Positions 12,476-51,754 of a DNA stretch of 64,000 nucleotides are shown here, in pieces. This DNA is from a bacterium (lineage in GTDB: Bacteria; Patescibacteriota; Doudnabacteria; UBA920). Made by a program: the position numbers and the translations under genes. The DNA lies in contig JAKAGU010000001.1 of the NCBI GenBank assembly GCA_021825655.1, positions 50,358 to 114,357 on the forward strand. Direction: 5' to 3'. Position 1 is the stretch's first letter, and the number at the start of each line of letters is the position of its first letter. The notes under the pieces were generated by a model. It searched no databases. It saw only the letters and a program-made list of their open reading frames with translations, and had not been told where the DNA came from.

Positions 12476-12508
12476 AAAAAGCCCTCCGTTTAACGGAGGG
12501 CTTTTTGT
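12474..12508. terminator. Bidirectional intrinsic terminator
   Basis: aaaaaaaGCCCTCCGTTtAACGGAGGGCtttttgttt. The stem overlaps the ruvC stop codon. Confidence 0.7.
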
Positions 12509-12984
12509 TTGGGGAAGTGCCAGCCCGCGCAGAGGGCAATGGCCAGCGCATCAGCCGCATCATCAGGTTTGGGGATTTTTGTAAGACCGAAGGTTTTTTG
12601 CACCACGTATTGGACCTGTTTTTTGTCGGCTTTCCCGTAGCCGCAAATAAAGTTTTTTACCTGCAACGGCGTAAATTCCAGAATCGGCAGTTTATGCTTT
12701 TGGGCCAGAAACAGCACCACTCCCCTGGCTTGGGATACGGTCATCACCGTTTTCTGGTTGGTGGTAAAAAAAAGTTTTTCTATGCCTACGGCCGCGGGCC
12801 TGTGTTTTTTTATAAGGCTTTCCAGGTCCTGGCCTAAAATTTCCAAGCGCTCCGCGTCAGAAAGCATTTTTTTTGTGGCAATAACCCCGTATTCCAGAAT
12901 TCCAAAGCCGTTTTTGGCCTTGGTTTTTTGGATAACACCGTAACCGGTTGTGGCAGTGCCCGGGTCAATCCCTAAAATTACCAT
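12490..12984 (-). CDS. ruvC: Crossover junction endodeoxyribonuclease RuvC
   Basis: 164 aa. The N-terminal MVILGIDPGTATTGYGV motif is diagnostic of the RuvC/RNase H fold. Confidence 0.85.
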   Translation of the reverse strand: MVILGIDPGTATTGYGVIQKTKAKNGFGILEYGVIATKKMLSDAERLEILGQDLESLIKKHRPAAVGIEKLFFTTNQKTVMTVSQARGVVLFLAQKHKLPILEFTPLQVKNFICGYGKADKKQVQYVVQKTFGLTKIPKPDDAADALAIALCAGWHFPKQKALR

Positions 12985-12987
12985 ACA

Positions 12988-13491
12988 TTATTTGCCGATT
13001 AGCCCCGGCAAGGCTTCAATGCTCAAGATAGGCGAATAAATATCCTCCAGGTTTTCGCGCTCAATTAGGAGGGTAAAATGTTCCTTAATCCGCCAGTTCC
13101 GCTGCTCCCAGGCTTCCAAGAAGATTTTAGCCGTAGGAATGAGCGGCAAAAAAGCCAGTTGTGCCACTGGTACGGTTTCTACCCGGCCTTCGTTGCAGAC
13201 TAAAGGCTCGCCAATATACAGGCCGGAAAATTGGTAGAGAATTTTTTTTTGGTTGATTATTATCCGGCCAAATTCCTTGAGTTTTATCTGGGTCAAGCCC
13301 GTCTCCTCGGTCAGTTCGCGGTAGGCTCCCTGGACGTGGGTCTCCCCCACTTCTACTTTCCCACCGAAACCGGTAAACAGGTTGGGGGCAAACTTCTTAT
13401 TTGGCGACCTCCTGAGCAGGTGGAAGCAGGTGGGTTTGCTCTTGTCGGCCAGGAAAATGGTGGTATATTTTTCTGTGTCTGTTTCATTCAT
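12988..13491 (-). CDS. NUDIX hydrolase
   Basis: 167 aa with a Nudix box (GGKVEVGETHVQGAYRELTEETGL). Confidence 0.75.
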   Translation of the reverse strand: MNETDTEKYTTIFLADKSKPTCFHLLRRSPNKKFAPNLFTGFGGKVEVGETHVQGAYRELTEETGLTQIKLKEFGRIIINQKKILYQFSGLYIGEPLVCNEGRVETVPVAQLAFLPLIPTAKIFLEAWEQRNWRIKEHFTLLIERENLEDIYSPILSIEALPGLIGK

Positions 13492-13500
13492 GGGCTGTGT

Positions 13501-14223
13501 TTAAAGGTTGGCTGAGGTATGTACGGAAATAACGTCTTCGTCGTTCTCCAATTCAGCAAATAAGGCGTCCACTTTGGGTTTTTGCTCCTCAGTGAGGTCG
13601 ACGCCCTGGCTGGACTCTTTGATAATATCCGCTCGGGCAATTTTAGCACCTGCAGCCAAAAGCGCGGTTTTGGTTTTTTGTAAATCATTGGGCAGAGTGT
13701 AGACTTCCAGTCCTTCTTCGGATTCGCGCACGTCGTCTGCGCCTGCGTCTATGGCGGCCAGTTGGATTTCTCCCAAGTCAGGTCGGTCTCGTTCCACCAA
13801 AATTTGGCCTTTGGTGTTAAACTGCCAGGCTACGGAACCCTGTGCGCCCATGTTACCGCCATGCTTGGCAAAAATATGTTTAATGTTATTGGAAGTGCGA
13901 TTGGTGTTATCGGTGGCAACTTCCACCAAGAAAGCCGTGCCGAACGGGCCATAGCCTTCGTAAGCGACTTCTTTAATTTGGCCTGCGCTGCCTCCGGCGG
14001 CAGCTTTGATGGCCCGGTCGATGTTATCGTTGGGCATCCCCTGGTCTTTGGCATAATCCACGGCGGCTTTTAGTTTGTAGTTAACCATGGGGTCACCGCT
14101 GCCTCCGCCTTCTTTCACGGCAATGGAAATTTTTTTAGAAAGTTTGGAAAACAGCAGGCCGCGCTTTTGGTCGGCTGCGCCTTTAGTCCTTTTAATCTGT
14201 GCCCATTTGGAATGTCCCGACAT
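13501..14223 (-). CDS. YebC/PmpR family DNA-binding transcriptional regulator
   Basis: 240 aa. The N-terminal MSGHSKWAQIKRTKG is a YebC family signature. Confidence 0.85.
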   Translation of the reverse strand: MSGHSKWAQIKRTKGAADQKRGLLFSKLSKKISIAVKEGGGSGDPMVNYKLKAAVDYAKDQGMPNDNIDRAIKAAAGGSAGQIKEVAYEGYGPFGTAFLVEVATDNTNRTSNNIKHIFAKHGGNMGAQGSVAWQFNTKGQILVERDRPDLGEIQLAAIDAGADDVRESEEGLEVYTLPNDLQKTKTALLAAGAKIARADIIKESSQGVDLTEEQKPKVDALFAELENDEDVISVHTSANL

Positions 14224-14224
14224 G

Positions 14225-14890
14225 CTATTTGAATGAAATTAAGACTGTAAATTCTCCTTTTATTGCGGGCCTGTCCTTCAGCTGGTTCAAGACTTCGTAG
14301 GGCGAGCCACGCAAAAATTCTTCATGAAGCTTGGTCAGCTCCCGGGCAACGGCAACCTGGCTATTGGGAAAGGCGTTAGCTACGTAGTTGAGGGTTTTTA
14401 TGATGCGTTCAGGGGATTCATAAAAAATAGCCGTAGCCTCGGCATTTTGGGCTGCCTGGAGCGCGGACACGGTTTTAGCCGCGGTCTTCTGCAAGAAGCC
14501 TAAAAATAAGAATCTGTCCGTGGGCAGGCCGGAGGCGGACAGCGCGGTTACGGCTGCGTTGGCCCCGGGCAGGGGCACCACGCTCACATTTTCTTTCACG
14601 CATTCCCGCACCAGGCGGAAGCCCGGATCCGAGACGCCGGGCGTGCCCGCATCTGTAATCAGACAGCCGTCGGCTTTGCCCAAGCGCCGGGTAAGGTCTT
14701 TGACCACTTGCTGTTCATTATGCTCGGCAAACTGTACCATTTCTTTTGGCCAGGCGCCAATGTGTTCCAATAGCCGCCTGGAATAATGCGGATTTTCAGC
14801 AATTATAAACTCGCACGCTTTAAGGCTTTCAATAGCGCGCTGGGTAATATCTTTCAAATTGCCGATGGGTGTGGCGACGATGTATAACAT
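14225..14890 (-). CDS. rsmI: 16S rRNA (cytidine1402-2'-O)-methyltransferase RsmI (tetrapyrrole methylase fold)
   Basis: 221 aa with an RsmI-like N-terminus (LYIVATPIGNLKDIT...). Confidence 0.8.
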   Translation of the reverse strand: MLYIVATPIGNLKDITQRAIESLKACEFIIAENPHYSRRLLEHIGAWPKEMVQFAEHNEQQVVKDLTRRLGKADGCLITDAGTPGVSDPGFRLVRECVKENVSVVPLPGANAAVTALSASGLPTDRFLFLGFLQKTAAKTVSALQAAQNAEATAIFYESPERIIKTLNYVANAFPNSQVAVARELTKLHEEFLRGSPYEVLNQLKDRPAIKGEFTVLISFK

Positions 14891-17698: not shown

Positions 17699-17774
17699 GC
17701 GCGCGTAGCTCAGTTGGTAGAGCGGACGTCTTATACACGTCTGGTCCCAGGTTCGAGTCCTGGCGCGCGCACCA
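17699..17774 (+). tRNA. tRNA-Ile (anticodon UAU), CCA encoded
   Basis: Folded by hand: acceptor gcgcgcg/cgcgcgc, D-arm gctc-agttggta-gagc, anticodon stem gacgt/acgtc, loop cTTATac (U33, anticodon TAT, A37), T-arm ccagg-ttcgagt-cctgg, then ACCA. Confidence 0.8.
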
Positions 17775-29033: not shown

Positions 29034-29798
29034 TTAGACTGCGCTTGGTGCTTCCATTGCAGCCTTGAGTTCCGGCCAGTGATCTTTGGGTTTTTTCACC
29101 CATTGGCCGGCTGCGATGTACCTTGCAACCATCGGGTCGTCCTGCCGGTACTGAGCGGTTGGAATCCACTTGTAGCAGAGGATGGGCACGCTGGTCCCGT
29201 CCGGGCATTCGAACAGATCTTTGCCGGAACGGTTGAACGCGCAGGTGATGGCCACCAGTTTGGCGCCGAAGCTTTGGATGACTTCCCAAGCTTTGCCCGT
29301 GGTTGACAGGTTGTTGACCACGTCCTCGCTGAGGACGGCGAGGTCGCCCGAGAAGAGTTCGTGCCGATCCATAATGAGGTGCGATTTTTCCCGGCTAGTT
29401 GCCGTCTCGGCCTCGTCAACCTTCTTTTCCATGAACACGGTGCGGCGGTTGGCCAGCCGACCGATGTCCCCGGAAAGCAGTATCCCGCCCATGGGTGCGC
29501 CGATGACCGCGTCGAAATCAATTTCTCCGCCGGCAAGCATCCCAAGGATGCCTCTGGCGAAGAGGTCGCGGACATGGGGGAAGCGTTCAGCCCGGGCAAA
29601 GTTGTAGTACACATCGCCGACGTACTGAAGCTGATGGCCGTGGCCGTCGTCGTAACGGCCGGCGTAGCCGACCAGGGGCCCGGCGTAGTTGCCTGCCGAA
29701 TCCTTGGGGCACTGGTAGTAGCCGTCGCATTTGGTCAGAATATCCAGAGCTTCGTCGTCCTGGTTAATCTGCGCAGCGAGGGTGGCTTTTCGATGCAT
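29034..29798 (-). CDS. Type I phosphoribosyltransferase-like protein (orotate phosphoribosyltransferase-like)
   Basis: 254 aa with a PRPP-binding-loop-like motif (DLAVLSEDVVNNLSTTGKA) and a PRTase-like core (AVIGAPMGGILLSG). Translationally coupled to the upstream gene (TAAccATG). Confidence 0.55.
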   Translation of the reverse strand: MHRKATLAAQINQDDEALDILTKCDGYYQCPKDSAGNYAGPLVGYAGRYDDGHGHQLQYVGDVYYNFARAERFPHVRDLFARGILGMLAGGEIDFDAVIGAPMGGILLSGDIGRLANRRTVFMEKKVDEAETATSREKSHLIMDRHELFSGDLAVLSEDVVNNLSTTGKAWEVIQSFGAKLVAITCAFNRSGKDLFECPDGTSVPILCYKWIPTAQYRQDDPMVARYIAAGQWVKKPKDHWPELKAAMEAPSAV

Positions 29799-29800
29799 GG

Positions 29801-30619
29801 TTAGTCGTCTCCTTCGCTGTGTTGGTTAACGGCTTCGAGGATGTTGTCCGCTACGAGTTCGGCGGCCGCCACTACGTCTGTCGCGCCGGTAATATCCCGG
29901 CCCACGACTACGCCATTGGCGCCGTCACGGATGGAGTTGCCCGGGGCGCTGACTGCCTTTTGGTCTTGCTTGCTGGAGCCAGGCAGACGCACGCCGGGGG
30001 TGTAGATGAGAAACAGCGGTCCGCAGGCTGCGCGGATTGCCGTAACCTCCAGGGGTGAGGCAATGACGCCATCGCAGCCATGTCGTTGGGCCAGCTTGGC
30101 AAGCCGGACCACAATTTCCAGGCGGCGCGGCTCAGTATCGTCTTCGGCTTTGAGCCCGAGTTGGACGAGGTCGTCTTCACCCAGGCTGGTGAGCAGGGTC
30201 ACTGCAATCAGCAGGGGCTTCTGTTCCAGGCCGAGCTGGGCCGATATCTCATCCACGGCCTGTCGTGCCGCCTTGAGGGCAGGCGGCCCGGCAAAAGCGT
30301 GGACGTTGAACATGAGCGGCTGGAGCCGACAGATGGCCTTGCTGGCGCCGGCAACGGTGTTGCCGATGTCCGCGATTTTGCCATCCACGAACTCGAGGTT
30401 GTTGAAGGCGGAAAACAGCGTCCGCAGTCGGACCAGGGTATGGAAAGCGCTGTCCTGGCCGGTCGTGATGAGGGTTGAGAACATGGAGTAAATGAACTCA
30501 AAGCCGATCTTGAATCCGCCGACGTAGCCCTTGAGCTTGGCTACGAGCTCGATCGCCTTCTCCACGTCATTAACGTCGAGTGCTACAATAACGCGCTCGC
30601 GCGCGCCTTGTCTGGTCAT
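29801..30619 (-). CDS. Orotidine 5'-phosphate decarboxylase-like protein (type 2-like)
   Basis: Start chosen at the internal ATG (MTRQGARERVIVALDV...). Active-site motif DxKxxDIG.T (FVDGKIADIGNTV) and N-terminal VIVALDV...GGFKIG are diagnostic of the OMPDC fold. Gene GC about 60-63%. Confidence 0.7.
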   Translation of the reverse strand: MTRQGARERVIVALDVNDVEKAIELVAKLKGYVGGFKIGFEFIYSMFSTLITTGQDSAFHTLVRLRTLFSAFNNLEFVDGKIADIGNTVAGASKAICRLQPLMFNVHAFAGPPALKAARQAVDEISAQLGLEQKPLLIAVTLLTSLGEDDLVQLGLKAEDDTEPRRLEIVVRLAKLAQRHGCDGVIASPLEVTAIRAACGPLFLIYTPGVRLPGSSKQDQKAVSAPGNSIRDGANGVVVGRDITGATDVVAAAELVADNILEAVNQHSEGDD

Positions 30620-30728
30620 GATTGTTCTCTCTTTCACGTGAAATGAAAAGAAGACACGACTTGTACAGCTTATCGTGCCTCCTTTAAGGTGGGGCAATTA
30701 TATACCCTAAAGACCTTTTAATCAAGGC

Positions 30729-46056: not shown

Positions 46057-46086
46057 ATCAGCCGCTTTATTAAAAGCGGTTTTTTG
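46057..46086 (+). terminator. Intrinsic terminator after rnhB
   Basis: tcAGCCGCTTTattaAAAGCGGTttttttg. Confidence 0.6.
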
Positions 46087-46241
46087 ATTATAATAGTGTA
46101 AGTTTGTAGGGTTCCCAAAAATTAGGAGCGCAGGCATCCGAAGGATGGCGAGCACGGATTTTTGGGAAAGAGGAAGGCTTTCGGGGCTAGTGAGTTTTGA
46201 GCCGAAGGCCAAAACGAACAAGCATAAGATAAGCCTGACGA

Positions 46242-46332
46242 GGAGAGGTCGCATAGTGGTCTAGTGCGCTGGTCTCGAAAACCGGTAAGGGCCAAAAGCC
46301 CTTCGAGGGTTCGAATCCCTCCCTCTCCGCCA
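46242..46332 (+). tRNA. tRNA-Ser (anticodon CGA), class II
   Basis: Acceptor ggagagg/cctctcc, anticodon stem ctggt/accgg with loop cTCGAaa, long variable arm (taagggccaaaagcccttc), T-arm gaggg-ttcgaat-ccctc, discriminator G, CCA. Confidence 0.8.
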
Positions 46333-46343
46333 GTAAATAACCA

Positions 46344-46601
46344 TTGATGCATTATTTTTATATTTTGAAATGCCGGGACAAGAGCCTCTATAGCGGCGTG
46401 GCTAAGGACTTGGAGAAAAGAGAAGCGGTTCATAATTCAGGCAAAGGCTCCAAGTACGTTTGGGCGCATGGGGGCGGCAAAATTATTTACTCGGAAAAAT
46501 TTAAGACAATTGGCAAGGCTTTACGTAGGGAAGCGGAAGTGAAGAAATTTTCCAGGCGAGAAAAATTGGGTTTGATAAAGCTTGCCAAAAGGAAGAAATA
46601 A
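46344..46601 (+). CDS. GIY-YIG nuclease family protein (small, YhbQ/UPF0213-like)
   Basis: 85 aa. YFYILKCRDKSLYSGVAKDLEKR matches the GIY-YIG core. Starts with TTG or ATG immediately after tRNA-Ser. Confidence 0.65.
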   Translation: MMHYFYILKCRDKSLYSGVAKDLEKREAVHNSGKGSKYVWAHGGGKIIYSEKFKTIGKALRREAEVKKFSRREKLGLIKLAKRKK

Positions 46602-46959
46602 TTCTATGGATTTCAAATTCACCGACCAGGCTTTTGAAAACGAGTATCCCAAACTGGTCAGGGACAATATTCCGGCACTCTACAAAGCACGGACAGGCAA
46701 GGATGCGAAAATTGAAACCATCAAGTCAGACGAGGAGTTTTTGAAGTTCTTGCTAAAAAAGATGGTGGAAGAAGCCAGGGAATTGGAGTACTCTGTAAAA
46801 GCGGGCAATACGCAGGAAGAGCTGGCGGACATTTTCGAAATTATTGCGGCAATTTTGGACCTAAAAGGTTGGAGCCTTGAAGGTGTTGCAAGAGTCCAAA
46901 AAGACAAGCGGGCCAAGAATGGCGCGTTTGAAAAGCGGATAATCCTTTTGGAAAAATAA
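46582..46959 (+). CDS. MazG-like nucleotide pyrophosphohydrolase (all-alpha NTP-PPase) family protein
   Basis: 125 aa. EYPKLVRDNIP...EELADIFEIIAAI...RAKNGAFEKRIIL resembles the MazG/HisE-type NTP pyrophosphatase core. Overlaps the 3' end of the GIY-YIG ORF. Confidence 0.55.
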   Translation: MPKGRNNSMDFKFTDQAFENEYPKLVRDNIPALYKARTGKDAKIETIKSDEEFLKFLLKKMVEEARELEYSVKAGNTQEELADIFEIIAAILDLKGWSLEGVARVQKDKRAKNGAFEKRIILLEK

Positions 46960-46979
46960 CCAATAACCATCTAATTAAC

Positions 46980-47714
46980 ATGCAAAACAAAACCATACTT
47001 ATAAGCGGGGGAGTTACGGGCATTGGCGCGGCCACGGCTTTGGAGTTTCTGGAGCACGACTGGCAGGTTTCGGTTTTTAGCAACATGAAGGAAAATAACG
47101 AAGAATTTTTGAGGCTCGCCAAGTCGCAGGGCCTCTCCAGGGGCTTGTTAGTTTTAGATGCCGATATCACCAGGGAAAAAGATTTAAAAAAAGTCGTGGC
47201 TGAGACTAAAAAGAAGTTTAAGACAATTGACGTGCTGTTTAACAACGCCGGCATGGGCTATTTTACGGAAGCCGACAAGGTGGATGTGAAAAAGTTCGAC
47301 CAGATGATGGAGGTGAATGTGATCGGCATGGCGGATTTGACCAAGCAGGTTATCCCAATAATGAAGAAGCAGAAGCACGGCCAGATAATCAACAACTCCT
47401 CCATTGCGGGCAAGGTTGGGCATGCCAAAAGCGAATTCTACGCGGCTACCAAGTCCGCGGTTATGCGCTACTCGGAAGGCCTTAGGGCCGAACTGCAAAA
47501 GTTCGGCATCAAAGTCGCGGTGATTTATACCAGCACGGTGAAAACCGGCTTTTGGAGCAAAAAAGAATACAGCCGCCGCAAGAAAGAAAACTGGAAAGGC
47601 AAAGACCCGGTATTCTTAACTACCCAGGATTTGGCACGCACCGTGCAGTTTATAGTGGATCAGCCGGATCACAGTGCGGTCGAGGAAGTTACTATTATGC
47701 CGTTCGGCAAATGA
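46980..47714 (+). CDS. SDR family NAD(P)-dependent oxidoreductase
   Basis: 244 aa with a Rossmann motif ISGGVTGIG, NNAG, and the catalytic Y...K (YAATKSAV). Confidence 0.8.
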   Translation: MQNKTILISGGVTGIGAATALEFLEHDWQVSVFSNMKENNEEFLRLAKSQGLSRGLLVLDADITREKDLKKVVAETKKKFKTIDVLFNNAGMGYFTEADKVDVKKFDQMMEVNVIGMADLTKQVIPIMKKQKHGQIINNSSIAGKVGHAKSEFYAATKSAVMRYSEGLRAELQKFGIKVAVIYTSTVKTGFWSKKEYSRRKKENWKGKDPVFLTTQDLARTVQFIVDQPDHSAVEEVTIMPFGK

Positions 47715-47715
47715 T

Positions 47716-49038
47716 ATGGAAAAGTATTTTGGTGAAGAGACAAAAAAAGCCCTGCGCAATTTTCCATTTTCCACGCACCCCGTGAAAATGGAATTTATTT
47801 TGGCTATAGTAAAAATCAAGAGAGCCGCCGCCCTTGCAAATTTTAAGGCCGGCAACTTTAAGCGGCCGGTAAGCAACGCGATTATTAAAGCTTGCGATGA
47901 GGTTCTGTCCGGCAGGATAAAAGGCCAGTTTCCGCTATCTTCGTTCCAGGGCGGCGCCGGCACGGCCATTAACATGAATGTAAATGAGGTACTGGCTGCG
48001 CGGGCCACGGAAATTCTGGGTGGAAAAACTTTAGTGCACCCCAATGACCATGTGAATTGCAGCCAGTCCACCAACGATGTTAACCCTTCGGCCATAAAAG
48101 TGGCAGTGCGCGGTTTGCTTTTGGAACTGGACGCAGCTTTGGCCGGGCTTATAAAAACTTTCGAAACCAAAGCCAGGGCATTTTCCGGAACCGTCAAGCT
48201 GGGCCGGACACATTTGCAGGACGCAGTGCCTACGACTTTGGGGGCGGAGTTTGGGGCGTATGCGGAAAATTTGAAGGGCCACAAAAATACCTTGGAAGCT
48301 GCCCGTGGCTATTCAGAAATTTTGAATTTGGGCGGCACCGCCATCGGCAATTCAGCTAATGCCAGCCCTAAATATATAAAAGAAGTTTTTGCGGAATTAA
48401 ACAGGGTAACTAGGAGCCGGTTTGCGCCAGCGAAAAATTTTATGGCCAAAACGGGGTCGCACACGGACTTTGTAGCAATTTCTCAGGCAGTCACGGCCTT
48501 AAGCGTTGAACTGTCCAAAATTGCCAACGATTTTAAGCTTATGGCTTCGGGCCCGCGCGGAGGACTTGGAGAGCTGGTGTTGCCTGAATTGCAAAAAGGC
48601 TCATCCATTATGCCGGGTAAAATAAACCCGGTCCTGCCGGAAACCTTGAACCAACTGTATTTTTTGGTTTCAGGCAATAATTTGACGATAGAAAAAGCGT
48701 CCGAAGCTTCGCAGTTGGAACTGGGCGTAATGCTACCCGTGATTGCCGATCGTTTATTGGAGTCCGTTAAGCTGGCGGCCGAAAGCGTAAGGCAATTTGA
48801 TAAGTTTTGCGTAGCCAAGGTTAAAGCGGACGCCAAGCAATGCCGCGAACATTTGGAAAATTCGACTGCTTTTGCAACTTTCCTTACCCCAAAGTATGGG
48901 TATGACCGCATTAGCCAGCTGGTGAAGGCGGCGGTCAGAAATCACACCTCGTTCAAACAAGAGGTGCTGTCCAGCGGCCTGATGAAACCGGCTGAATGGC
49001 AGAGTTTCGTGCAGGGCGTAACCAAAAAGATAAGGTGA
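47716..49038 (+). CDS. aspA: Aspartate ammonia-lyase-like protein (fumarase/aspartase class II family)
   Basis: Start at the ATG (MEKYFGEE...) one nt after the SDR stop. Family signature GSSIMPGKINPVLPE. N-terminal FQGGAGTAINMNVNEV and overall similarity favour aspartase over fumarase C. Confidence 0.7.
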   Translation: MEKYFGEETKKALRNFPFSTHPVKMEFILAIVKIKRAAALANFKAGNFKRPVSNAIIKACDEVLSGRIKGQFPLSSFQGGAGTAINMNVNEVLAARATEILGGKTLVHPNDHVNCSQSTNDVNPSAIKVAVRGLLLELDAALAGLIKTFETKARAFSGTVKLGRTHLQDAVPTTLGAEFGAYAENLKGHKNTLEAARGYSEILNLGGTAIGNSANASPKYIKEVFAELNRVTRSRFAPAKNFMAKTGSHTDFVAISQAVTALSVELSKIANDFKLMASGPRGGLGELVLPELQKGSSIMPGKINPVLPETLNQLYFLVSGNNLTIEKASEASQLELGVMLPVIADRLLESVKLAAESVRQFDKFCVAKVKADAKQCREHLENSTAFATFLTPKYGYDRISQLVKAAVRNHTSFKQEVLSSGLMKPAEWQSFVQGVTKKIR

Positions 49039-49643
49039 AATATATTGATTTAACCCAGGTGCTCCGGGCGGGTATGCCGGTGTTTCCCGGCGACCCGGCT
49101 GTGGGGCTAAAAACAGCAACGGCCTCCCCCCAGGTGACGGAAGTTATTTTTGGCACGCACAGCGGGACCCATTTGGACGCGCCTAGCCATTTTTTTCCAG
49201 ACGGCAAAAAGTTGTCCGACTTTGCCGTGGAGAGCTTTGTGGGAAAAGGGGTCCTCTTGGATGTGCGCGGCAAAAAAAATATCGACAAAGAAATTTTATT
49301 GCATGCGGAAATTAAACCCGGAGATATTGTACTTATATACACAGGCTGGCAAGGAAAATATGGGACTAAAGAATACTTTAAGGATTATCCGGTTGTATCG
49401 GAGGGGCTGGCAAAAGAACTCGTGCGCCTACAGGTTAAAATGCTGGGGATAGATACTCCAAGCCCGGATAAAGAGCCCTTTTTGGTCCACGAGACCTTGC
49501 TCCAAAAAGAAATTTTAATTTTGGAAAATTTGTGCAACTTAGAAAAATTGTTAAAGACTAAAGATTTTGGAATTATCGCTTTGCCCTTAAGGCTGGAAAC
49601 GGACGGCGGCCCGGCCAGGGTGGTGGCAAAAATTTATGAATAA
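49035..49643 (+). CDS. Cyclase family protein (kynurenine formamidase-like, PF04199-type)
   Basis: GTG start overlapping the lyase stop (GTGA). HxGTHxDxPxH metal-binding motif (HSGTHLDAPSHF) and an N-terminal MPVFPGDP pattern. Confidence 0.6.
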   Translation: MKYIDLTQVLRAGMPVFPGDPAVGLKTATASPQVTEVIFGTHSGTHLDAPSHFFPDGKKLSDFAVESFVGKGVLLDVRGKKNIDKEILLHAEIKPGDIVLIYTGWQGKYGTKEYFKDYPVVSEGLAKELVRLQVKMLGIDTPSPDKEPFLVHETLLQKEILILENLCNLEKLLKTKDFGIIALPLRLETDGGPARVVAKIYE

Positions 49644-49980
49644 ATTCGGTGTGGTGCTTATTGTATTTTTCGGTGAGGCGCTAATGATCCTTGCCGAAAT
49701 GTGGGGCGCCAGGCACTACCAGCCCGGCGCATTTTGGAATGTTTTTTTCAAAATGCTGGCGGTCATGGGGGCGGGCGGAGCTTTGCTGGTGGCGGGGTAT
49801 GTGCTGGGCTATTCCAGCTTTAAGAACATCTGGGTGGTCAGCGTAGTTTCCATCACCTCGATTTTAATTATTGAGCCAACCTTAGCTTATGTGATTTTTC
49901 AGCAGACTCCCACCAAGGGGGCTGCCGCGGGCCTGCTGCTTGGTGCGTTGGGCTTGGCCCTGTCCTTATTTTGGAAATAG
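49636..49980 (+). CDS. Hypothetical 4-TM membrane protein
   Basis: 114 aa with four hydrophobic helices. Its start overlaps the cyclase stop (ATGAATAA). Confidence 0.45.
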   Translation: MNKFGVVLIVFFGEALMILAEMWGARHYQPGAFWNVFFKMLAVMGAGGALLVAGYVLGYSSFKNIWVVSVVSITSILIIEPTLAYVIFQQTPTKGAAAGLLLGALGLALSLFWK

Positions 49981-49985
49981 CTTTT

Positions 49986-51089
49986 ATGAAAAAAGTTTTG
50001 ATTTTTTACACCTCGGTGGGCCTGGGCCACAAGTACATTGCGGAAAATATCGGCTGGCAGCTGGGGCAGGCCGGGTTAGAGGTGCGCCTGGAGGATGTTT
50101 CCAAAGTACAGGACGGCAAGTTTGCCAGAACCCTGATCGGGGTGCATTGGTTTATAAACCGGTACCTGCCTTTTGTCTGGAGCTGGCTGTACAAAAGCCG
50201 GCTGGTTAATTTTTTAATCTCACCCCTGCGTTTGCCGCTGGCCGCCCGGAATTCCGGGCGCGTTGAAAAACTGATTCTGGCATACCGGCCTGATATGGTC
50301 ATTACCACCCAGACCACGGCCTCCGCTGCGGTTGCGTATTTGAAAAAGCGAGGGGTCTACACCCGGCCGTTTGGCATTGCCTTTTCGGATTTTCACCTGC
50401 ACCGTTTCTGGTTGTATGACCAGGCGGATTTTTACCTGGCTAATATTTTGGAGCAAAAAACAGAAATGCTGCGCCTGGGCATTTTGCCTGAAAAAATTTA
50501 CGTGTGCGGCATGGCCCTGCAGCCGCAGCCGGAAGTGGATACGGCGGCGATAAAAGAAAAGTTGGGCATAGTCCCAGTAGAGAAGGTAGTGCTTGTCGGC
50601 AGCGGTTCTTTGGGCACGGGTTTGAATGAGGAGTTAATCCGAAATATATCCAGCCTGCAAAAGGTAAGGGTGCTTGTGGTGTGCGGCAAGAACGAAGGTT
50701 ACAAAGAACGCCTAATGCAAAAATTTGTCCAAACCAATATCAAGATCTTCGGTTTCTATTCGCCCATGAGCGAACTTTACGCGATTGCGGATATATATGT
50801 CGGCAAGCCGGGCGGTCTCACCACGGCTGAGGCTTTGTCCTGGAATCTCCCACTGCTGGTCACCCACTGGTTGCCGGGGCAGGAAGAGCTGAATGTCGAA
50901 TATTTAAAAAACCGCCGTTTGATTATGCTGGCAGGCAATGCGGTCGCTCAGGTTAAACAGGAAATTGACACCGGCGAGTTTAAAAAGCAGCTGGCCATAA
51001 ATTCGGCGGCGGCCCGGTTGGTTAGGCCCGAATTTAGCGTTCAAACGGCCGTTTTGCGGGTGCTTCACGGTTTGACTAATCGCGGCTGA
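49986..51089 (+). CDS. GT28-family diacylglycerol glycosyltransferase (UgtP/MGDG-synthase-like)
   Basis: ATG start (MKKVLIFYTSVGLGHKYIAENIG...). MGDG-synthase-like N-terminal domain plus GT28 C-terminal domain. Confidence 0.65.
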   Translation: MKKVLIFYTSVGLGHKYIAENIGWQLGQAGLEVRLEDVSKVQDGKFARTLIGVHWFINRYLPFVWSWLYKSRLVNFLISPLRLPLAARNSGRVEKLILAYRPDMVITTQTTASAAVAYLKKRGVYTRPFGIAFSDFHLHRFWLYDQADFYLANILEQKTEMLRLGILPEKIYVCGMALQPQPEVDTAAIKEKLGIVPVEKVVLVGSGSLGTGLNEELIRNISSLQKVRVLVVCGKNEGYKERLMQKFVQTNIKIFGFYSPMSELYAIADIYVGKPGGLTTAEALSWNLPLLVTHWLPGQEELNVEYLKNRRLIMLAGNAVAQVKQEIDTGEFKKQLAINSAAARLVRPEFSVQTAVLRVLHGLTNRG

Positions 51090-51141
51090 TTGTTTATCAT
51101 AACCTTGCAAAGGTTTGAGGATTAATTTCGCGCGAGATTTT

Positions 51142-51702
51142 ATGGCAAAGAAAGAAAAAACTTCGTTTTTTGGGAAAATTATGGGCGGTAATGTTACGGA
51201 AGAAATGCCTGAAAAAGTCGCTGTTTCACATATCCAAGAAACCGAATACGAAGAAGAGCTGACTCCGGAAGAAGAAGTTGAAGAGCAAGATATGGTTGTG
51301 GAGGCCGTGGAACCCGTGCCCACAAAACCGGAACAGCCTGCGCAGCAGGGCGATGACTGGATGGCTGACTACGAAGGACAGCTGAATATTGATATGTACC
51401 AGACCAAGGACAACGTTATTATCAAATCGACGATTGCCGGCGTCCGGCCTGAGGATATTGATATCACGGTAGCCAACGACATGGTTACGGTAAAAGGCGC
51501 CCGCAGGAAAGAAGAGAATGTGGCGGAAGATGACTATTTCTACCAGGAATGCTATTGGGGCGGTTTTTCCCGCAGCGTGATTGTGCCGGTGGATATTGAC
51601 AGCGAGCATATTGAAGCCGATTTGAAAGACGGAATATTAACCATAATTATTCCCAAAGCGGCCAAGGCCAAAACCAAAAAAGTGAAAGTTAAGGGCCTGT
51701 AA
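51142..51702 (+). CDS. Hsp20/alpha-crystallin family small heat-shock protein with an acidic N-terminal extension
   Basis: ACD motifs (DMYQTKDNVIIKSTIAGVRPEDIDITV...FSRSVIVPVDIDSEHIEADLKDGILTIIIPK). The ATG start is chosen over the upstream TTG. Confidence 0.75.
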   Translation: MAKKEKTSFFGKIMGGNVTEEMPEKVAVSHIQETEYEEELTPEEEVEEQDMVVEAVEPVPTKPEQPAQQGDDWMADYEGQLNIDMYQTKDNVIIKSTIAGVRPEDIDITVANDMVTVKGARRKEENVAEDDYFYQECYWGGFSRSVIVPVDIDSEHIEADLKDGILTIIIPKAAKAKTKKVKVKGL

Positions 51703-51716
51703 TCCAATACTTTTTT

Positions 51717-51754
51717 CCCCTGGAAACCTTTTGGTTTCCAGGGGAATTTCTTTT
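51717..51754 (+). terminator. Intrinsic terminator after hsp20
   Basis: CCCCTGGAAACCttttGGTTTCCAGGGGaatttctttt. Confidence 0.6.

Follow-up and report, generated by a model that had tools for sequence, protein, structure and literature searches.

Proteins encoded by the locus described here have their closest described counterparts in several families. Aspartate ammonia-lyases are exemplified by AspA of E. coli (PDB 1JSW) and AspB of Bacillus sp. YM55-1 (1J3U). Cyclase-family hydrolases are exemplified by KynB (4CO9), together with 1R61, 2B0A and the isatin hydrolase 4J0N, and diacylglycerol glycosyltransferases of CAZy family GT28 by UgtP/YpfP (9WDE) and the plant enzyme MGD1 (4WYI). The small multidrug resistance (SMR) proteins EmrE and Gdx/SugE, with the half-size drug/metabolite transporters (DMT) of the ArnE/ArnF type, and the MazG or all-alpha nucleoside triphosphate (NTP) pyrophosphohydrolases complete the set. 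We know of no pathway joining these families, and a literature search on candidate phyla radiation (CPR) bacteria, or Patescibacteria, with aspartate ammonia-lyase, kynurenine formamidase, UgtP and MGDG synthase found no description of a cluster of this kind. Here, we analyze a string of seven genes in a 64,000-nt stretch of Patescibacteria contig JAKAGU010000001.1 (the window, to whose full length all coordinates refer). In our judgement it is fairly likely that these co-directional, probably co-transcribed genes were assembled by stepwise accretion at a conserved Patescibacteria site, and that they constitute neither a seven-enzyme pathway nor an acquired islet.

All seven genes are on the + strand. 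In order, they encode an 84-aa GIY-YIG nuclease-family protein (46347..46601), a 117-aa MazG-like NTP pyrophosphohydrolase candidate (46606..46959), a 244-aa classical short-chain dehydrogenase/reductase (SDR; 46980..47714), a 440-aa lyase of the class II aspartase/fumarase superfamily (47716..49038), a 202-aa cyclase-family metal-dependent amidohydrolase with a GTG start (49035..49643), a 114-aa membrane protein with four predicted transmembrane helices, hereafter 4-TM (49636..49980), and a 367-aa UgtP/MGDG-synthase-like glycosyltransferase of family GT28, hereafter GT (49986..51089). On the 5' side, the string is preceded by RNase HII and a tRNA-Ser gene (anticodon CGA; 46242..46332, + strand, found with ARAGORN). 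On the 3' side of GT, outside the string, stands a gene for an Hsp20 small heat-shock protein (51142..51702, + strand; PF00011, E 1e-19). The seven + strand open reading frames (ORFs) and their family assignments had been proposed in an earlier sequence-only reading, and both were borne out by direct reading of the sequence and by domain searches.

A Conserved Site With Variable Content

Gene neighborhoods were collected for cyclase homologues at 80, 73, 53, 52, 50, and 49% identity and for GT homologues at 53, 52, and 51% identity. Genes were scored by tblastn and tRNAs by ARAGORN, so that presence and absence are given here at the locus and not genome-wide. Nine loci, several of them cut by contig ends, share the backbone MurF-(Alr)-Ddl-RNase HII-tRNA-Ser(cga), a variable segment, then GT28-Hsp20 and, further on, FtsK, a RodZ-like gene and RecA. 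ARAGORN put the tRNA-Ser(cga) gene at this point, past RNase HII, in each of the relatives analyzed for it (L010, L011, L013, L016, L097, and L098).

The genes found between tRNA-Ser and Hsp20 differ from one locus to the next. In L010, the same six genes as in the window, from GIY-YIG to 4-TM, follow a 152-aa ORF and a DsrE gene, up to the contig end. L011 carries GIY-YIG, a NUDIX hydrolase, SDR, lyase, cyclase, and GT, and L014, where the contig starts within the segment, carries SDR, lyase, cyclase, and GT. The segment of L097 consists of the lyase, 30 nt past the tRNA, the cyclase, and GT; that of L098 likewise consists of lyase, cyclase, and GT. The Doudnabacteria locus L016 shows tRNA_bind and TauE genes followed by cyclase and GT, and only the GT-Hsp20 pair is found on a JGI contig (3300041966). 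In L013, SDR and cyclase are followed by an unrelated secreted protein, and a regulator of the PaaX_M family lies upstream of the tRNA. The partial ORF of this secreted protein (L013:10819-11373), cut by the contig end, encodes a hydrophobic segment at the N terminus and a GDKGDPGTQGPSGAPG stretch that resembles collagen.

The earlier suggestion that the cyclase, AspA-like lyase, and GT28 genes might be conserved together holds in part: L011, L014, L097, and L098 carry the three genes at this site side by side and in an unchanged order. All these loci belong to one syntenic backbone, so that common descent accounts for the adjacency no less well than a common function. No such co-conservation is seen for the other four genes. 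GIY-YIG is 90% identical in L010 and 87% identical in L011, and is absent from L013, L097, L098, and L016. SDR is confined to the window, L010 and L011 (both 96% identical), L014, and L013 (73%), and is absent from the L097, L098, and L016 loci. 4-TM is present at the locus only in the window and in L010; it is not found between cyclase and GT in L011, L014, L097, L098, or L016. In L097 and L098, the lyase (58-60% identity), the cyclase (45-46%), and GT (51-52%) are conserved to a degree close to or lower than that of Ddl (69-70%) and FtsK (54-66%) in the flanks, which fits vertical inheritance of the three genes. A cyclase without lyase is found twice in the backbone, as SDR-cyclase in L013 and as cyclase-GT in L016.

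A protein identical to the lyase is also encoded on contig DAIENE010000004.1 (GCA_027341245.1, a Patescibacteria metagenome-assembled genome) and on three metagenome contigs, and close homologues that carry an organism name are labeled "Patescibacteria group bacterium." The surroundings of the string, with MurF, Ddl, RNase HII, many scattered tRNAs, Hsp20, FtsK, and RecA, are judged typical of a CPR genome.

The tRNA-Ser Junction

The position beside a tRNA gene and the GIY-YIG/MazG pair had also been thought to fit an acquired islet. On that explanation, the whole cluster would have been horizontally acquired and integrated at tRNA-Ser, bringing with it a small-molecule or glycolipid pathway. 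The cluster does begin, with GIY-YIG, 14 nt past the end of the tRNA gene, and what follows the tRNA differs among relatives (the 152-aa ORF and DsrE in L010, NUDIX in L011, tRNA_bind and TauE in L016). Moreover, PaaX_M-family regulators lie just upstream of the tRNA in both L013 and L098, and GIY-YIG has the lowest GC content of the seven genes (0.42). Against this stands the synteny of the tRNA and of both flanks in all relatives. Lyase-cyclase-GT belong to that synteny, and only GIY-YIG, MazG-like, SDR, and 4-TM vary. Composition is host-like as well. The GC content of the seven genes is 0.42-0.52, compared with a window mean of about 0.49, and neither GC at third codon positions (GC3) nor codon distance (0.09-0.14) falls outside the values of 35 reference genes when gene length is considered. 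No att-like direct repeat of the tRNA 3' end was found in 46200-51300, the public contig gene list shows no integrase or recombinase within +/-10 kb, and no defense or phage family was matched in PADLOC or PHROGs. For the cluster as a whole, the idea of an islet is thus largely refuted already, and we regard it as extremely improbable; the variable spot is only the first few hundred bases past the tRNA. A reading of the GIY-YIG/MazG pair as a defense system was also considered and was rejected, as neither PADLOC nor PHROGs gave a match.

Tight Junctions and Transcription

The starts derived from the sequence are those of the public gene calls on DAIENE010000004.1 for every gene called there. 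The GIY-YIG ORF is missing from that list, where a gap separates RNase HII from the 117-aa gene; the corresponding ORF is called in L010 and missed in L011. The junctions from SDR to GT are as first described. SDR and lyase are joined by TGA-t-ATG, with a 1-nt gap, lyase and cyclase by GTGA, with a 4-nt overlap, and cyclase and 4-TM by ATGAATAA, with an 8-nt overlap; 4-TM and GT are separated by 5 nt. The overlap that had been described for GIY-YIG and MazG-like is real only for the longest ORF, which begins at TTG 46582. With the called start, ATG 46606, which has AGGAAG about 10 nt upstream, the two genes are separated by 4 nt. The gap between MazG-like and SDR is 20 nt.

From such tight coupling, a common pathway had been argued. 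Using a crude gene caller (first-ATG and longest-ORF figures), 12 of the 41 same-strand junctions in the 64-kb window measure 6 nt or less. Four of them are in the cluster and the others make up 8 of 37 (22%) elsewhere, with a second run of tight junctions at 12490-14890. The run of four in the cluster is notable, yet not exceptional for a compact genome. Since junctions this tight are common elsewhere in the genome, they are weak evidence for a common pathway. The start/stop junctions would be chiefly a product of genome compaction and translational coupling, and do not demonstrate a shared pathway. Their spacing is not kept among relatives either, lyase and cyclase being separated by 113 nt in L097 and by 3 nt in L098, and cyclase and GT by 28 nt in both.

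As expected of an operon, the seven genes share one strand, with junctions of -8 to +20 nt and no strong internal terminator. Promoter and terminator scans gave results near the shuffle expectation, the terminator-like matches inside the cluster being weak and not above it. Stronger hairpins lie outside, at 46060-46081, past RNase HII, and at 51715-51746, past Hsp20; the latter is a 14-bp hairpin with a T-tail and is terminator-like. A promoter-like site is found at 51072-51100, near the end of GT. These scans are compatible with one transcription unit running from the tRNA through GT, and perhaps through Hsp20. It is thus probable, from gene arrangement, that the seven genes are co-transcribed.

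The Lyase, the SDR, and the Cyclase

The lyase matches PF00206 (Lyase_1, E 6e-80) and PF10415 (FumaraseC_C, 33.3 bits for a cutoff of 32.5), the two domains together covering its full length. Its top PDB matches (E 1e-99 to 1e-94) are 3OCE/3OCF, whose deposited name is "Fumarate lyase:Delta crystallin," and two proteins named as aspartases, 1J3U and 1JSW; fumarases score slightly lower. The motifs checked were the catalytic SS loop, GSSxMPxKxNP, and the substrate-binding TNDV and GRTHLQDA. In alignment with 3OCE they are intact, as GSSIMPGKINPVLPE for the SS loop, SQSTNDV, and GRTHLQDAVP. An SS loop ending in NPV-x-PE is of the aspartase type, and one ending in NPTQ-x-E is of the fumarase type. 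The protein thus resembles the aspartate ammonia-lyases AspA and AspB in its full-length match, both domains, and the motifs. It differs from curated AspA in falling below the cutoffs of both AspA models (488 bits for 510 with NCBIfam PRK12273, aspartate ammonia-lyase; 416 for 681 with TIGR00839), in scoring only about 15 bits higher with the latter than with the fumC model TIGR00979 (401 for a cutoff of 665), and in being, at 440 aa, shorter than the model enzymes. From these comparisons, the lyase appears closest to aspartate ammonia-lyases; the scores do not settle its substrate specificity.

The SDR (adh_short, E 2.5e-46) reaches the cutoff of no NCBIfam model. Its best full-length PDB match is YMR226C (3RKU), and JGI names a member of its cluster YdfG. 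It would accordingly be a classical SDR of no special type, with YdfG/YMR226C as its nearest counterparts.

The cyclase matches PF04199 over its full length (E 4e-32), and its best PDB match is KynB of Bacillus anthracis (4CO9/4CZ1, E 1e-21). Like KynB and the other cyclase-family hydrolases, it has the HxGTHxDxPxH motif and the distal His and Glu. The fold and metal ligands resemble those of kynurenine formamidase, to which (4CO9) the sequence was aligned, and none of the ligands H42, H46, D48, H52, H152, and E164 varies among 43 homologues. Unlike KynB, it remains far below the cutoff of the arylformamidase equivalog TIGR03035 (100 bits for 223), and no kynurenine-pathway genes accompany it: neither tryptophan dioxygenase nor kynureninase was found within +/-10 kb on the public contig or in the related loci. 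Given the intact metal ligands and catalytic motifs, the lyase and the cyclase are probably both active enzymes.

A functional lyase-cyclase(-GT28) module could be imagined inside the string, with SDR and the SMR-like 4-TM protein as later accessories. For example, the cyclase might deformylate or deacylate an N-substituted aspartate-like compound, from which the lyase would then release fumarate and ammonium; alternatively, the lyase-cyclase pair might make or modify a head group that GT attaches to a lipid. Besides the intact catalytic residues, such a module would account for the adjacency of lyase and cyclase in six of the six loci that have the lyase and of cyclase and GT in 6/7 scorable loci, at identities down to 45-60%, and for the overlapping stop and start codons seen in four genomes. 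However, all these co-occurrences lie in the one syntenic backbone and thus count as roughly one evolutionary event, and the spacing of lyase and cyclase is loose in L097 (the 113 nt given above). The cyclase is found without the lyase in L013, L016, L015, and L005, and GT without either on the JGI contig. Outside the backbone, cyclase loci comprised 80 metagenomic loci, retrieved with an alignment query (identities up to 46%; short in many cases), and five genome loci, retrieved with a single-protein query, one from a CPR genome (Gottesmanbacteria L005) and four from non-CPR genomes. In the stored flanks of these 80 and five loci, neither a lyase nor a GT28 nor a 4-TM gene was found near the cyclase. 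Ten cyclase neighbors sampled outside the backbone were NUDIX, DnaG, ferredoxin-like, TPR/SH3, RibD_C, Mfd, GT9, and three proteins without a Pfam match. A functional link of lyase, cyclase, and GT is possible, and is not separable from inherited synteny; taken as a whole, the module described here seems to us unlikely, and accretion at the site is again preferred.

The Putative Pyrophosphatase Position

The GIY-YIG assignment is straightforward (PF01541, E 6e-14). In contrast, the MazG-like protein matches PRA-PH (PF01503) at E 0.002 with 19.1 bits, below the Pfam cutoff of 21.3, and has no sequence match in the PDB; in these two respects it departs from the MazG superfamily. It shares with MazG and the all-alpha NTP pyrophosphohydrolases a length of about 115 aa, a helical character, and the acidic EExxE...EExxD motif seen in its sequence, and NCBI names a 91%-identical orthologue "nucleoside triphosphate pyrophosphohydrolase." Its single-sequence AlphaFold2 (AF2) model is poor (pLDDT 62), too poor for a meaningful fold search; the fifteenth-ranked match of this model is 2P06 (AF_0060), a protein like the all-alpha NTP pyrophosphatases, and hints no more than faintly at that family. 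The protein is thus a tentative candidate for an all-alpha NTP pyrophosphohydrolase.

In L011, whose Ddl is 92% identical, a NUDIX hydrolase (L011:4827-5246) stands in place of the MazG-like gene, between GIY-YIG and SDR. It appears that one NTP pyrophosphatase fold has been replaced by another without sequence relationship, and this swap suggests selection for an NTP pyrophosphatase at that position. NUDIX genes are also found directly upstream of the cyclase, on the same strand, in Gottesmanbacteria (L005:9513-9983, 18-nt gap) and Taylorbacteria (L015:7563-7952, 49-nt gap), in contexts that are otherwise unrelated.

It can be asked whether these associations reflect a nucleotide-derived route, in which an NTP pyrophosphatase, the arylformamidase-like cyclase, and the SDR would act on a formylated purine- or pterin-like intermediate by dephosphorylation, deformylation, and reduction. 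The NUDIX genes of L005 and L015 would fit, as would the NUDIX or MazG-like gene upstream of SDR-lyase-cyclase in L011 and in the window, and a RibD_C reductase adjoining the cyclase in L024. The three NUDIX proteins, however, are 27-39% identical over the NUDIX box region only and are not clearly orthologous, and a scan for the NUDIX box by regular expression showed no overall enrichment near cyclases (two near, two far). Furthermore, the L097, L098, and L016 loci have neither a pyrophosphatase nor an SDR, and the string adjoins no gene for a cyclohydrolase or for another step of such a pathway. We consider such a route very improbable.

The Glycosyltransferase and Hsp20

GT contains the domain pair PF06925 (MGDG_synth, E 1e-10) and PF04101 (Glyco_tran_28_C, E 8e-8). 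Among PDB entries it matches best 9WDE (E 1e-29), a processive diacylglycerol beta-glucosyltransferase, and next MGD1 (4WYI); like these enzymes, it has the GxGH and GKPGGxTxxE motifs. More than 100 homologues were found at about 50% identity or above, and those with an organism name are Patescibacteria. The protein is probably a diacylglycerol glycosyltransferase. It differs from UgtP in its score with the diglucosyl-diacylglycerol synthase equivalog PRK13609 (139 bits for a cutoff of 500), in not adjoining an LtaA-type flippase or a lipoteichoic acid synthase, and in being always followed by Hsp20 in its clade. This last adjacency is seen in seven of seven scorable loci (the window, L011, L014, L016, L097, L098, and the JGI contig). 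GT is the gene of the string that varies least in its presence at the locus, and GT-Hsp20 is the most stable pair of the region, holding even in the locus without lyase and cyclase.

One may go further and suppose that lyase-cyclase-GT28(-Hsp20) is a CPR-specific module kept for its function. The lyase and cyclase would supply or remodel a nitrogen compound tied to the synthesis of membrane glycolipid, and recruitment in this lineage would have added SDR, an exporter or flippase of SMR fold, and the NTP pyrophosphatase. If true, bacteria unable to make their own lipids would have a lipid or small-molecule route that has not been described before. We hold this to be improbable, and return to stepwise accretion below.

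A Membrane Protein With a Predicted SMR-Like Fold

The 4-TM protein has no match in Pfam, NCBIfam, PADLOC, or PHROGs, and none in Pfam even at E 10. Its family comprises 136 clusters (at 50% identity) among 1.84 billion representatives. Residues G13, E14, E21, Y55, W66, S72, E80, P81, and P92 are conserved in at least 90% of the family. The AF2 model (pLDDT 94.5) has four helices, 3-27, 33-62, 65-88, and 94-112. In a fold search with this model (Foldseek), the top five PDB matches are EmrE or Gdx-Clo, with TM-scores of 0.57-0.67 and probabilities of 0.80-0.98, at E values of only 0.4-1.5. Sequence comparisons gave weak EamA matches in three of 90 family members, and hhalign of the family against EmrE gave a probability of 18% on helix 4 alone, which by itself is no evidence of homology.

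Like SMR proteins (EmrE, Gdx/SugE) and half-size DMT proteins of the ArnE/ArnF type, 4-TM has about 110 aa, four transmembrane helices, and a conserved glutamate in helix 1 (E14). Unlike them, it has no Pfam SMR match and shows additional conserved acidic residues, E21 and E80. Two tandem paralogues in L101 (5624-5992 and 6001-6342) resemble heterodimeric SMR pairs. The model thus suggests that 4-TM represents an unannotated family with a predicted SMR (EmrE/Gdx)-like fold. For annotation, the family could be recorded as an unannotated one with a predicted SMR fold and conserved, presumably membrane-embedded, glutamates. Away from the present locus, homologues stand beside DUF2061 and VWA genes or form a tandem pair, and no GT28 neighbor was seen in the two loci examined. 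The distribution of the family looks patchy. Its members range from about 110 to 120 aa, and one of them is labeled Woesearchaeota.

A Proposed Order of Assembly

From the presence and absence of genes among relatives, we infer an order in which the string may have been built. The site of growth would lie between tRNA-Ser(cga) and the GT28-Hsp20 pair. The older layer would be lyase-cyclase-GT28(-Hsp20). In it, an AspA-type lyase would interconvert aspartate and fumarate plus ammonium, possibly so that nitrogen or aspartate is salvaged where central metabolism is scant; the cyclase would act as a binuclear-metal amidohydrolase on a formamide or amide; and the UgtP-like GT would glycosylate diacylglycerol to give a membrane glycolipid. 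GIY-YIG and an NTP pyrophosphatase past the tRNA (MazG-like here, NUDIX in the sister genome) and the YdfG-like SDR would be younger, lineage-specific additions. The most recent insertion may be that of the SMR-fold, transporter-like 4-TM gene between cyclase and GT.

Several observations weigh against stepwise accretion as the explanation of the string. The adjacency of lyase, cyclase, and GT lasts at about 50-60% identity, longer than random gene order usually survives, and the lyase is never found at the locus without an adjoining cyclase (6/6). No run of junctions in the window is tighter than the four successive ones of 5 nt or less, in three of which a start overlaps or abuts the preceding stop, and such a run would give obligatory co-expression. 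The exchange of MazG-like for NUDIX at one position, with the upstream NUDIX genes of L005 and L015, hints at selection for function at the locus. Lastly, the sample is of nine backbone loci, several of them truncated.

If stepwise accretion is correct, little changes. The locus is then a worked example: in compact CPR genomes, tightly coupled starts and stops say little about a shared pathway, and a neighboring tRNA does not by itself make an islet. The block of lyase, cyclase, UgtP-like GT, and Hsp20 recurs across a Patescibacteria clade, and is a target for questions about glycolipids and about aspartate and ammonium in lipid-scavenging ultrasmall bacteria.

Other Features of the Window

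Two features lie away from the string. A tRNA-Ile with anticodon TAT (UAU) was found by ARAGORN at 17699-17774. In bacteria, AUA is usually decoded by a lysidine-modified CAU tRNA. The strongest compositional outlier of the window is a pair of adjacent genes on the - strand at 29034-30697, with a GC content of 0.59 and GC3 of 0.71-0.73 (window means for this comparison, 0.50 and 0.59). These genes encode an orotidine monophosphate decarboxylase (PF00215) and a 254-aa protein without a Pfam match.

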